Made by a program: the position numbers and the translations under genes
Shown here: in pieces, positions 24,414 to 33,130 of the stretch
How positions within the stretch are numbered: position 1 is the first letter of the stretch
Layout: each line of letters begins with the position of its first letter
The notes under the pieces: model-generated
The model's input: the letters and a program-made list of their open reading frames with translations, nothing else
Database searches by the model: none
Told to the model about the DNA's origin: nothing
Source of the DNA: Escherichia coli
GTDB taxonomy: Bacteria > Pseudomonadota > Gammaproteobacteria > Enterobacterales > Enterobacteriaceae
NCBI RefSeq assembly: GCF_048403405.1
Contig: NZ_CP183129.1
DNA: 64,000 nucleotides
Direction: 5' to 3' (one strand)

Positions 24414-24576
24414 GCAAAAAAAGAGTTCGCCAGATACCATTTTGATGCGTGACGAATGCTTTGCCATCCAGTACCATAGCGCCCTTTCCATTCCTGGACC
24501 TGAATAACACCACTACCTCATAAGCACGGTAGCGGGTGGTTATTGCCTGCAATTAAAGATATAGAGCCGAACACAT

Positions 24577-27483
24577 ATGCCTTTTACACTTGGTCAACGC
24601 TGGATCAGCGATACAGAAAGCGAATTGGGACTTGGAACCGTTGTCGCGGTGGATGCGCGAACTGTCACTTTACTTTTCCCATCTACTGGTGAAAACCGTC
24701 TGTACGCACGCAGTGATTCCCCCGTGACCCGCGTGATGTTCAACCCTGGTGATACCATTACCAGCCATGATGGCTGGCAGATGCAAGTCGAAGAAGTAAA
24801 AGAAGAAAATGGCTTGCTGACCTATATCGGTACTCGCCTGGATACTGAAGAGTCCGGCGTAGCCCTGCGTGAAGTTTTCCTTGATAGCAAACTGGTGTTC
24901 AGCAAACCGCAGGACCGTCTGTTTGCCGGGCAGATTGACCGTATGGACCGCTTTGCGCTGCGTTATCGCGCGCGTAAGTATTCCAGCGAACAGTTCCGTA
25001 TGCCGTACAGCGGCCTGCGCGGTCAGCGTACCAGCCTGATTCCGCACCAGCTCAACATCGCTCATGATGTTGGCCGCCGCCACGCGCCGCGCGTCCTGCT
25101 GGCTGACGAAGTGGGTTTAGGGAAAACCATTGAAGCCGGGATGATTCTGCATCAGCAACTGCTCTCTGGCGCTGCTGAACGTGTGCTGATTATCGTCCCG
25201 GAAACCTTACAGCATCAGTGGCTGGTAGAAATGCTGCGCCGTTTCAACCTGCGCTTTGCTCTGTTTGATGATGAGCGTTATGCCGAAGCTCAGCATGATG
25301 CTTACAACCCGTTCGACACCGAACAGCTGGTGATTTGCTCGCTGGATTTTGCCCGTCGTAGCAAACAGCGTCTGGAACATCTCTGTGAAGCCGAATGGGA
25401 TCTGCTGGTGGTCGATGAAGCCCATCACCTGGTGTGGAGCGAAGATGCGCCGAGCCGCGAATATCAGGCCATTGAACAACTGGCAGAGCACGTGCCCGGC
25501 GTTCTGCTGCTGACCGCAACCCCGGAACAACTGGGGATGGAAAGCCACTTCGCCCGTCTGCGTCTGCTGGACCCGAACCGTTTCCACGATTTCGCGCAAT
25601 TCGTTGAAGAGCAGAAAAATTATCGTCCGGTTGCGGACGCCGTTGCCATGCTGCTGGCAGGTAACAAACTGAGCAATGACGAACTGAACATGCTTGGCGA
25701 GATGATCGGCGAGCAGGATATCGAGCCGCTGTTACAAGCAGCAAACAGCGACAGCGAAGATGCCCAGAGCGCCCGTCAGGAGCTGGTTTCGATGCTGATG
25801 GATCGCCACGGCACCAGCCGCGTGCTGTTCCGTAACACCCGTAACGGTGTGAAAGGCTTCCCGAAACGCGAGCTGCACACCATTAAGCTGCCGCTGCCGA
25901 CGCAGTATCAGACGGCTATTAAAGTCTCCGGCATTATGGGCGCACGCAAAAGTGCGGAAGATCGCGCTCGCGATATGCTCTACCCGGAGCGTATTTATCA
26001 GGAATTTGAAGGTGATAACGCCACCTGGTGGAACTTCGATCCGCGCGTTGAGTGGCTGATGGGCTACCTGACCAGCCATCGCTCTCAGAAAGTGCTGGTG
26101 ATCTGCGCTAAAGCTGCCACTGCGCTGCAACTGGAGCAAGTACTGCGCGAACGTGAAGGTATCCGCGCCGCGGTGTTCCACGAAGGCATGTCGATTATTG
26201 AACGTGACCGCGCTGCCGCCTGGTTTGCTGAAGAAGACACCGGCGCACAGGTACTGCTGTGCTCGGAAATCGGTTCTGAAGGACGTAACTTCCAGTTCGC
26301 CAGCCACATGGTAATGTTTGACCTGCCATTCAACCCGGATCTGCTGGAGCAGCGTATTGGGCGTCTGGATCGTATCGGTCAGGCGCACGATATTCAGATC
26401 CATGTGCCTTATCTGGAGAAAACCGCTCAGTCGGTGCTGGTGCGCTGGTATCACGAAGGTCTGGATGCATTCGAACACACCTGCCCGACCGGACGCACTA
26501 TCTACGATAGCGTATACAACGATCTGATTAACTATCTGGCTTCACCGGATGAGACCGAAGGCTTTGACGATCTGATCAAAAACTGCCGCGAGCAACATGA
26601 AGCGCTGAAAGCACAGCTGGAACAAGGTCGTGACCGCCTGCTGGAAATCCATTCCAACGGTGGCGAAAAAGCCCAGGCACTGGCAGAAAGCATTGAAGAG
26701 CAGGATGACGATACCAACCTGATCGCCTTCGCCATGAACCTGTTCGATATTATCGGTATCAATCAGGACGATCGCGGCGACAACATGATCGTACTGACGC
26801 CGTCCGATCATATGCTGGTGCCGGACTTCCCTGGCTTGTCGGAAGATGGCATCACCATCACCTTCGACCGTGAAGTGGCGCTGGCGCGTGAAGATGCGCA
26901 GTTTATTACCTGGGAGCATCCGCTGATCCGCAACGGTCTGGATCTGATCCTTTCTGGCGACACCGGTAGCAGCACGATTTCACTGTTGAAAAACAAAGCG
27001 TTGCCGGTAGGTACGCTGTTGGTGGAACTGATTTACGTGGTTGAAGCCCAGGCTCCGAAGCAGTTGCAGCTCAACCGCTTCCTGCCGCCGACACCGGTAC
27101 GTATGCTGCTGGATAAAAACGGCAACAACCTGGCGGCGCAGGTGGAGTTTGAAACCTTTAACCGTCAGCTTAACGCGGTTAACCGTCACACCGGCAGCAA
27201 ACTGGTTAACGCCGTGCAGCAGGATGTTCACGCGATCCTTCAGTTGGGTGAAGCGCAGATCGAGAAATCTGCCCGTGCACTGATTGATGCCGCACGTAAC
27301 GAAGCCGACGAAAAACTGTCTGCCGAGCTGTCTCGTCTGGAAGCTCTGCGTGCAGTGAACCCGAACATTCGTGACGACGAACTGACCGCCATTGAGAGCA
27401 ACCGTCAGCAGGTAATGGAAAGCCTGGATCAGGCAGGCTGGCGTCTGGATGCCCTGCGTTTGATCGTTGTAACGCATCAGTAA
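24577..27483 (+). CDS. rapA: RNA polymerase-associated SWI/SNF-family ATPase RapA (HepA)
   Basis: ORF 24577..27483, 968 aa; helicase motifs [14 protein letters not shown] and DEAHH. Confidence 0.96.
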
Positions 27484-28242: not shown

Positions 28243-28997
<755 letters not shown>

Positions 28998-29101
28998 ATC
29001 AGCATACTTGTCCTTAGCCTTCTGCAGTGACAGCTGGTAGTACAGCGTGCTTCTGGCCAGCCCTGCAGCCTTTAACAGGTCAGACTGGCAGTGTCCGCAC
29101 C

Positions 29102-29632
29102 TCAGGCTCCGGATGACTTTCGTTTTTTCTCCAGCTCCTGGCGCTTTTTTTCCAGGAGATGCTCCTGCATGGCTTTCAGATATGCATTTTCTGCGCGAAG
29201 ATAACGCAGCTCATTCTTCATCTCTTCCGGCGTCATGTTTGCTTCGTTTTCATGGGTATCATCAGAACGGGTCATGCTTTTCTCCTTCCTGCGCCTGATA
29301 AAGGCCTCATTACCAGATTTGCGGTAGCCTTTTATCCAGTTTTTAACCGTGTTGTGGCTGGGAATGTTAAACCGGGCAGCTACCCGGGGTAGAGACTCAG
29401 AATGCCCGAGAGCATAAAGAACCACGCAAAGTTTATCTTCAGGAGAATAGCTACGCCTGTGTCTGCAATCCAGTGCCCGAGGACCGTGAAGAAGAAAAAG
29501 ATTAATCCAGTGTGAGAGGCTGGTGTGAGAAAGTTGAAAGAGTTTTGCCGTAGAAATGATGCCTGCATGACCGGCCAGGTAATGATTTACAGCGGCAATT
29601 TTTACTTCAAATGAATGTTTCATAAACTGCAC
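29102..29632 (-). CDS. IS3-family transposase OrfA (HTH DNA-binding part)
   Basis: ORF 29102..29632, 176 aa, MKHSFEVKIAAVNHYLAGHAGIISTAKLFQLSHTSLSHWINLF...; an A6 run (gagAAAAAAcg) lies near its 3' end. Confidence 0.85.
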   Translation of the reverse strand: MQFMKHSFEVKIAAVNHYLAGHAGIISTAKLFQLSHTSLSHWINLFLLHGPRALDCRHRRSYSPEDKLCVVLYALGHSESLPRVAARFNIPSHNTVKNWIKGYRKSGNEAFIRRRKEKSMTRSDDTHENEANMTPEEMKNELRYLRAENAYLKAMQEHLLEKKRQELEKKRKSSGA

Positions 29633-29706
29633 CTTCAGATGTCAGATTATGTCCAACATTTGGGGTGCAGTTCAGGCCGCGTCTTATCAGGCCTATAGTT
29701 TGAAAC

Positions 29707-30776: not shown

Positions 30777-33130
30777 ATGAAAAAACGTATCCCCACTCTC
30801 CTGGCCACCATGATTGCCACCGCCCTTTATAGTCAACAGGGACTGGCAGCCGACCTCGCCTCACAGTGCATGTTGGGCGTGCCAAGCTATGACCGTCCTC
30901 TGGTACAGGGCGATACCAATGACTTACCCGTGACTATCAATGCTGACCACGCGAAAGGGGACTACCCGGATGACGCCGTGTTTACTGGCAGCGTGGATAT
31001 CATGCAGGGTAACAGCCGTCTGCAGGCCGACGAAGTGCAGCTCCATCAAAAGAGGCACCAGGACAACCGGAGCCGGTACGTACCGTTGATGCGCTCGGTA
31101 ATGTCCATTACGACGATAACCAGGTGATCCTCAAGGGGCCGAAAGGCTGGGCGAATCTGAACACCAAAGATACCAATGTCTGGGAAGGTGATTACCAGAT
31201 GGTGGGTCGTCAGGGCCGCGGTAAAGCGGACCTGATGAAACAACGTGGCGAAAACCGCTATACCATTCTGGATAACGGTAGCTTTACCTCCTGTCTGCCG
31301 GGTTCTGACACCTGGAGCGTGGTAGGTAGCGAAATTATTCATGACCGCGAAGAACAAGTTGCGGAGATCTGGAACGCCCGCTTTAAGGTGGGTCCGGTAC
31401 CGATCTTTTATAGCCCCTATTTGCAGTTGCCGGTGGGTGACAAACGTCGCTCTGGTTTCTTGATCCCGAACGCCAAGTACACCACCACCAACTACTTTGA
31501 GTTCTACCTGCCATATTACTGGAACATCGCGCCAAATATGGATGCCACCATCACGCCGCATTATATGCATCGTCGTGGCAATATCATGTGGGAGAACGAA
31601 TTCCGCTACCTCTCCCAGGCGGGCGCTGGCTTGATGGAACTGGACTATCTGCCTTCAGATAAAGTCTATGAAGATGAACACCCGAACGATGACAGTTCAC
31701 GTCGTTGGTTATTCTACTGGAACCACTCCGGGGTCATGGATCAGGTGTGGCGTTTCAACGTCGACTACACCAAGGTCAGCGATCCTAGCTACTTCAATGA
31801 TTTCGATAACAAGTACGGTTCCAGTACTGACGGCTACGCAACGCAAAAATTCAGCGTTGGCTATGCGGTGCAAAACTTCAATGCCACCGTTTCAACCAAG
31901 CAGTTCCAGGTCTTCAGTGAACAGAACACCAGTAGCTACTCGGCAGAGCCGCAGTTAGACGTTAACTACTACCAGAATGATGTTGGTCCGTTTGATACAC
32001 GCATTTACGGCCAGGCAGTGCACTTTGTAAACACCAGAGACGACATGCCTGAAGCAACCCGTGTTCACCTGGAACCGACCATCAATTTGCCGCTCTCTAA
32101 TAACTGGGGCAGCATCAATACCGAAGCGAAGTTGCTGGCAACCCATTATCAGCAAACTAATCTTGACTGGTATAACTCCAGAAACACAACCAAGCTGGAC
32201 GAATCCGTTAACCGCGTAATGCCGCAATTCAAAGTTGACGGCAAAATGGTCTTTGAACGCGATATGGAAATGCTGGCTCCGGGTTATACCCAAACGCTGG
32301 AACCGCGCGCGCAGTATTTGTACGTGCCGTATCGCGATCAGAGCGACATCTATAACTACGACTCGTCTCTGCTGCAATCTGACTACTCTGGCCTGTTCCG
32401 GGACCGGACTTACGGCGGTCTTGACCGTATTGCCTCCGCTAACCAGGTGACGACCGGTGTCACATCTCGCATATATGATGATGCTGCCGTTGAACGTTTT
32501 AATATTTCCGTTGGTCAAATCTACTATTTCACGGAGTCTCGTACTGGCGATGACAACATAACATGGGAGAATGACGACAAAACGGGCTCACTGGTGTGGG
32601 CAGGCGATACTTACTGGCGTATCTCCGAGCGTTGGGGATTGCGTGGCGGGATTCAGTACGATACACGTCTGGATAACGTAGCGACCAGTAACTCCAGCAT
32701 TGAATACCGTCGGGATGAAGACCGTCTGGTACAGCTGAACTACCGTTACGCCAGCCCGGAATATATTCAGGCTACGCTGCCTAAGTACTATTCCACGGCT
32801 GAGCAATATAAGAATGGTATTTCGCAGGTAGGTGCCGTCGCCAGCTGGCCAATTGCCGATCGTTGGTCAATTGTTGGGGCCTACTACTACGACACCAATG
32901 CGAACAAGCAAGCCGACTCTATGTTAGGTGTGCAATACAGCTCCTGCTGCTATGCAATTCGCGTCGGTTACGAGCGGAAGCTGAACGGTTGGGATAACGA
33001 TAAACAACATGCGGTATATGACAACGCAATCGGCTTTAACATCGAACTTCGCGGCCTGAGCTCCAACTACGGTCTGGGTACGCAAGAGATGCTGCGTTCG
33101 AACATTCTGCCGTATCAAAACACTTTGTGA
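30777..33130 (+). CDS. lptD: LPS-assembly outer membrane protein LptD (Imp/OstA); reading frame interrupted near codon 92 by an apparent 1-bp deletion in an A-run
   Basis: Track ORFs 30777..31127 (116 aa) and 31124..33130 (668 aa) are the two halves of one gene; the locus is 2354 nt, one short of a multiple of three; restoring one A in catcaaaag (around 31046..31052) reads ...[38 protein letters not shown]... straight through. Confidence 0.9.

Follow-up and report, generated by a model that had tools for sequence, protein, structure and literature searches.

A split lptD gene in an Escherichia coli chromosome is very probably a recurrent long-read homopolymer under-call

How can a gene that Escherichia coli requires for life come to be written as two separate reading frames in an assembled chromosome? 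The question arises from a 64,000-nt stretch of E. coli chromosome, here called the window, that runs from cra and ilvIH via leu, ara, polB, rapA, djlA, lptD, surA, cai, car and dapB to ileS. Within it, lptD, the gene for the lipopolysaccharide-assembly outer-membrane protein LptD, lacks one A from a run of five and is split in two by the resulting frameshift. LptD is essential in E. coli, and the split would leave the barrel domain on a different fragment from the signal peptide and Cys31; for these reasons a cell that truly had such an allele should not be able to live. Our reading is that the missing A is very probably a recurrent long-read homopolymer under-call, an error of the deposited sequence and not a mutation that the bacterium carries. 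In the real chromosome the site almost certainly reads AAAAA, and lptD is intact and functional.

By the annotation of the closest genomes and a gene-by-gene comparison, lptD stands in the chromosomal context djlA / lptD-surA-pdxA-rsmA-apaGH. The features of the locus as it is written are as follows.

30777..33130, + strand: lptD, LPS-assembly outer-membrane protein, placed by the annotation of the closest genomes and by djlA-lptD-surA-pdxA synteny
30777..31127, + strand: upstream open reading frame (ORF) of 116 aa, with the signal peptide and LptD residues 1-92, followed by 24 residues out of frame and the stop codon
31047..31052, + strand: CAA_AAG at codons 91-92, a −1 slippery motif of the A_AAG type, in register and created by the deletion, as read from the sequence
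31048..31051, + strand: run of four A (A4, c-aaaa-g) where relatives have five (A5), the single missing base, from a base-level comparison with NZ_CP103479.1
31058..31062, + strand: CCAGG, a Dcm methylation motif 6 nt 3′ of the A-run, as read from the sequence
31124..33130, + strand: downstream ORF of 668 aa, with a GTG start that overlaps the TGA, beginning MILKGPKG and carrying the remaining LptD in its original frame
31125..31127, + strand: premature TGA in the shifted frame, as read from the sequence

The gene measures 2354 nt (2 modulo 3), against 2355 nt in relatives, so that a preliminary description of this DNA was right to put its length one base below a multiple of three and to report two ORFs of 116 and 668 aa separated by the TGA, both of which are in the ORF list. 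The same description had the shorter ORF end in an out-of-frame tail; the tail is there, but Lys92 (AAG) is still wild-type and in frame, and the aberrant residues start only at Arg93. The 668-aa ORF has no signal peptide of its own, and the four cysteines are divided, with Cys31 on the 116-aa fragment and Cys173, Cys724 and Cys725 on the 668-aa fragment. Pfam assignments precomputed on identical products give PF03968 (LptD_N) for the shorter ORF and PF03968 plus PF04453 for the longer one, and the domain order of LptD (PF03968, LptD_N/OstA-like, then the PF04453 barrel) is present across the two. As written, the split after residue 92 leaves no single polypeptide with both the signal peptide and Cys31, Cys173, Cys724 and Cys725; once the A is restored, one polypeptide carries them all.

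A single base is all that is needed for this repair. Insertion of one A yields a continuous protein of 784 aa that is identical to the LptD of both K-12 MG1655 and strain 4621, as the preliminary description had anticipated when it spoke of a continuous and sensible product, and the repaired DNA equals the lptD of strain 4621 base for base. Alignment to reference alleles, which had been proposed as a check, gave an A-run of five in strains 4621, TUM14771 and K-12, and of four in the window and in every carrier locus that we fetched. The context of the intact run is CATC-AAAAA-GAGGCACCAGG.

We found that the missing base stands alone in the window. Six complete genomes are near-identical to it (strains 4621, MS 69-1, GN02461, TUM14771, TUM1226 and OX030728), and all six have A5. 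Over its full length, the window (64,000 nt) differs from strain 4621 (NZ_CP103479.1; 64,001 nt) by four single-nucleotide polymorphisms (SNPs) and one indel, the lptD deletion being the sole indel in 64 kb, and the other genes checked, about 54, are all intact. The window contains 244 homopolymer runs of at least 5 bases, of which 243 agree with strain 4621, including 56 of at least 6 bases and 17 of at least 7; the lptD A-run alone differs. As the sole indel in 64 kb and the sole differing run among 244, the lptD site is not a chance feature.

The same allele recurs in public assemblies, and this recurrence was observed directly. The exact 116-aa product is found in 374 blocks of a large assembly collection and in 303 contigs (NCBI, ENA and Logan), and all carrier loci that were fetched have the A4 allele in an identical 41-nt context. 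Carriers come from lineages that are 1.5-2.5% diverged from the window, with K-12 laboratory derivatives among them; one K-12-derivative Logan contig, seen in three samples, differs from MG1655 by a single gap and no mismatch across 17.6 kb. With a 61-nt query, the exact A4 allele was found in 5 of 5,425 RefSeq complete genomes, in each of which the Prokaryotic Genome Annotation Pipeline (PGAP) marks lptD as 'frameshifted'.

YSP8-1, NZ_CP037910.1: pig, China; A4
C51, NZ_CP127306.1: cattle, Russia; A4
98889, NZ_CP173438.1: human, Egypt; A4
HS-01, NZ_CP172817.1: human, Indonesia; A4
UID2309220007, NZ_CM142668.1: human, Thailand; A4

These carriers are singletons: the close relatives of each have A5, and A4 is fixed in no clade. 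It is not credible that a split lptD became fixed separately in strains from patients, animals and laboratories. A scan of JGI metagenome contigs gave 0 A4 matches, and its A5 positive control also gave 0, which makes the scan uninformative and leaves it without weight. In the literature we found nothing usable on frameshifts of lptD in work with nanopore sequencing (one paper on phage resistance names a mutation of the gene in avian pathogenic E. coli, with no relevant site detail) or on the sequencing platforms of the carrier genomes. As a separate observation, six query stretches taken from the window left exactly 1 of 5,426 complete genomes labelled 'E. coli' without a match. Another concerns a Logan contig of SRR28534803 (locus L014, ~4384/4385), from a K-12 derivative that lacks ilv-leu-ara-polB, so that cra runs straight into the 3′ portion of rapA; its lptD has A4 in otherwise perfect K-12 sequence. 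This deletion resembles the Δ(ara-leu) of common cloning strains.

Three further signatures point to sequencing technology as the origin of the allele. The first, also observed directly, is the co-occurrence of other homopolymer deletions. Many carriers are rich in errors, with 5-92 gap columns per 10 kb that are mostly 1-nt deletions in A5-A7 or C4-C6 runs; the deletions fall at the same positions across assemblies and fragment rapA, rluA, djlA, pdxA and rsmA, and in YSP8-1 a 40-kb stretch contains 9 frameshifted genes. Some of the intergenic gaps in these carriers may be natural polymorphism, but the gene fragmentation is not. Cleaner carriers have their few extra errors at shared hotspots, namely surA C6-to-C5 in C51 and GCA_030014555 and pdxA C4-to-C3 in GCA_047157925, and because these errors hit the same places they suggest that systematic-error sites differ in rank, the lptD run being one of those that persist longest. 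Most carriers have extra homopolymer indels; the window has none in 64 kb, and three recent complete genomes have none within 40 kb.

Such hotspots can be placed on the map of the window. Other recurrent 1-base deletions (loci L004-L029) lie at window-equivalent positions 24723, 27249, 30363, 33245, 34657 and 34908, and include rapA C5, djlA A6, surA C6 (which overlaps a CCAGG), pdxA C4 and pdxA A6; they produce false frameshifts in unrelated assemblies. In the window itself all of these other hotspots are correct.

The second signature is a strong deletion bias, seen directly in the allele spectrum: counted by contigs, the A4 product occurs 303 times, A3 15 times and A6 once. The third is an association with chromosome-scale contigs, again a direct observation. 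Contig size class served as a proxy for platform, 50 kb-1 Mb being typical of short-read isolate assemblies. The A4 product was found in 37 blocks >1 Mb and in 2 blocks of 50 kb-1 Mb, against 4,625 and 16,508 blocks, respectively, for the intact K-12-type LptD, an enrichment of A4 in the larger class with an odds ratio of 66 (p = 2e-22). Systematic nanopore errors are known to be mainly 1-base homopolymer deletions in R9 and R10 chemistries alike (PMC11927395). After polishing, bacterial assemblies from long reads or hybrid data still contain ~0.2-0.6 indels per 100 kb, compared with 0.02 for short-read assemblies, and E. coli was the hardest species tested (PMC9973852); one indel in 64 kb is of the same order as this residual rate. 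The preliminary description had regarded a genuine null allele as unexpected and had put a sequencing or assembly error in the homopolymer at the head of its explanations, a choice that recurrence, hotspots, deletion bias and contig-size class now support.

We propose that the lptD A5 run would be a recurrent site at which long-read consensus or base-calling counts one base too few, with nanopore-type sequencing as the most likely source of the error. The under-call would remain even where an assembly has hardly any other errors, and annotation pipelines would then call lptD a 'frameshifted' pseudogene or show it as a pair of ORFs. The window itself probably derives from a long-read platform, judging by proxies, namely contig size, the crossing of a repeat and the kinds of error in the co-carriers. 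The repeat in question is IS1397, a 1.4-kb element of the IS3 family of insertion sequences at 28250..29650, between rluA and djlA. The closest relatives have 4-5 other copies per genome that are 100% identical, and the window crosses the element uninterrupted. Short-read assemblies normally break at such repeats, and the spanning of IS1397 therefore implies an assembly based on long reads.

Several points weigh against an under-call. The error is deduced from assembled sequences. The longer runs of the window (56 of at least 6 bases, 17 of at least 7) are all correct and only an A5 is shortened, so that a model in which longer runs fail first does not explain the site. The recent genomes of 98889, HS-01 and UID2309220007, and likewise the K-12-derivative contig found in three samples, have this change in isolation; an isolated change in clean carriers fits a very site-specific artefact and would also fit a real recurrent variant. 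There are also small Logan contigs among the A4 carriers. Nor does nearness to a Dcm site by itself account for the hotspot: the window has 22 other runs of at least 5 bases no more than 10 nt from a CCWGG, and all are correct. Methylation of the CCAGG is a possible contributor to miscalling at most. The purine-rich context AAAAAGAGG may matter for the miscall, although this is speculation.

A minor alternative accepts the deletion as real and invokes recoding by the ribosome. In this scheme ribosomes slip −1 at CAA_AAG, the tRNA-Lys re-pairing from AAG to the overlapping AAA and GAG being read next, and 'compensatory' frameshifting yields a little LptD that is exactly wild-type. The candidate shift site, CATCAAAAGAGG, lies in the stretch CTCCATCAAAAGAGGCACC. 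In favour of this, A_AAG is in the correct register at codons 91-92 (31047..31052), the −1 product constructed in silico is identical to wild-type LptD, and several carriers are clean apart from A4. The next zero-frame codon, AGG, is rare and could favour pausing. In E. coli, A_AAG is the minimal −1 shift site and is reported to have offset a frameshift mutation close by; 'compensatory' frameshifting of low level is known as a class of event at indels, but shifting at A_AAG-type sites reaches only a 'relatively low level' (PMC5009743).

Elements that might raise this level were sought, and neither a stimulatory structure nor an upstream element was found. The 91 nt downstream fold no better than shuffled sequences (z = −1.29, with 21 of 200 shuffles folding as well), and on reading the sequence no Shine-Dalgarno-like element is visible just upstream of CAA_AAG. 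The distribution of the allele also speaks against recoding, as the frameshifted arrangement is fixed in no clade and appears as scattered singletons (5/5,425) while the six closest genomes have A5. The technology signatures, i.e. the 66-fold chromosome-scale enrichment and the large excess of A4 over A6, count against it as well, and there is no plausible selective reason for a deleterious change to arise repeatedly and independently in clinical, animal and laboratory strains. Altogether, we consider a real deletion rescued by −1 frameshifting very unlikely for the window. It is extremely unlikely, too, that in some carriers A4 is real and the cells live on a trickle of wild-type LptD from unstimulated −1 slippage at the CAA_AAG that the deletion created. 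If this were true, nature would provide an example of 'corrective' frameshifting in an essential gene of outer-membrane biogenesis, and it would mean that E. coli tolerates a drastic reduction of LptD. Rescue by reinitiation at the GTG at 31124 was rejected on reading the sequence, since its 668-aa product would be without signal peptide and Cys31 and the GTG has no more than a weak AGG before it.

A second class of alternatives takes the deletion to be a genuine variant in part of the culture, produced by slippage during replication or by heterogeneity, or else a true null allele tolerated through a suppressor or a second copy of lptD. Homopolymer runs are natural slippage sites, and a consensus caller could take up a minority subpopulation. 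However, a run of A5 is short to act as a contingency locus, A6 is essentially absent (1 contig against 303 for A4), and A4 occurs in unrelated assemblies with a technology-linked enrichment. A null subclone could not reach consensus frequency, because LptD is essential. As for a second copy, there is only one lptD-like place per genome across the 5,425 genomes. We regard explanations of this class as most improbable. A phase-variable simple-sequence repeat switch was considered and rejected: expanded and contracted tracts are not both seen in these contigs, with A6 nearly absent, the tract is only 5 nt long and the gene is essential.

The remaining alternative is that the source record has A5 and the base was removed after assembly, deliberately or by accident, leaving an edited or spiked sequence. 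It bears on the other differences between the window and strain 4621, which are as follows.

leuC: SNP, synonymous
11824, within espY2 (11570..12139, minus strand): SNP, missense L106F
58482, intergenic between carA (57085..58233) and dapB (58689..59510): SNP, T here and G in strain 4621
carB: SNP, synonymous

Among complete RefSeq genomes, no match to either flank was free of mismatches, as judged by bit scores, and because of this the window appears to be a distinct isolate or assembly of a 4621-like lineage. Consistent with editing are the lack of a complete RefSeq genome identical to the window and the absence of its EspY2 variant from the record. The remaining differences from strain 4621, however, look like ordinary strain variation and point to a distinct natural isolate. 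The exact change is also present in hundreds of public contigs, including the 5 RefSeq complete genomes, and an arbitrary edit would have had to hit a known hotspot by coincidence among 244 runs of at least 5 bases. Editing is therefore an exceedingly improbable origin. The transient slippage variant and the deliberate alteration that the preliminary description had also offered are both much less likely than a sequencing error, because the exact change already exists in many public assemblies.

Several of these neighbouring differences deserve a record of their own. The gene espY2 is an accessory gene resembling those for type III secretion effectors; L106F is not found in strain 4621, and the exact L106F protein is not on record in a collection of 15 billion proteins. 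The SNP at 58482 lies ~250 nt upstream of the carA start, inside the carAB control region. The position between rluA and djlA, which IS1397 occupies here, holds yabP/yabQ in K-12 and IS621, espY1 or nothing in other lineages. An A-run in the polB-rapA intergenic region (~24416..24422) is A7 in the lineage of the window and A8 in K-12 and several others; it varies naturally among good assemblies, and therefore not every homopolymer difference between lineages is an error.

For the biology of the strain an under-call would be of no consequence, as its lptD is almost certainly normal. The consequences are for quality control. Through a recurrent miscall at the lptD A5 run, an essential gene is falsely marked as a 'frameshifted pseudogene' in public E. 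coli assemblies, among them the five RefSeq complete genomes along with hundreds of further contigs. Pseudogene counts, essentiality and pan-genome analyses, allele calls in cgMLST, and screens for variation in outer-membrane proteins or antibiotic targets are possibly misled by it. Should A4 be real after all, its interest would lie only in compensatory frameshifting in an essential gene.

The split lptD can finally be set beside systems that it resembles. Protein-altering changes of lptD occur in viable E. coli, among them lptD4213 (imp4213), an in-frame internal deletion. Alleles of that type, however, keep the frame and the signal peptide on one polypeptide, whereas the split described here parts the signal peptide and Cys31 from the barrel and should abolish function. 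There is also a likeness to A_AAG-type and 'compensatory' frameshifting systems such as dnaX (A_AAA_AAG), IS1222 (G_CGA_AAG) and the G-run mutants of herpesvirus thymidine kinase, in that CAA_AAG is in register and a −1 slip would restore the wild-type frame (PMC5009743); these systems differ from the lptD site, at which we found no stimulatory structure or internal Shine-Dalgarno sequence and which is conserved in no clade. The best match is to the homopolymer-deletion errors of long-read sequencing. The lptD run is unusual among these in being only 5 bases long and in failing while the 6-8-base runs of the window are correct, but it shares with them a 1-base homopolymer deletion that recurs across genomes, is biased toward deletion, is linked to hotspots and is found on chromosome-scale contigs.

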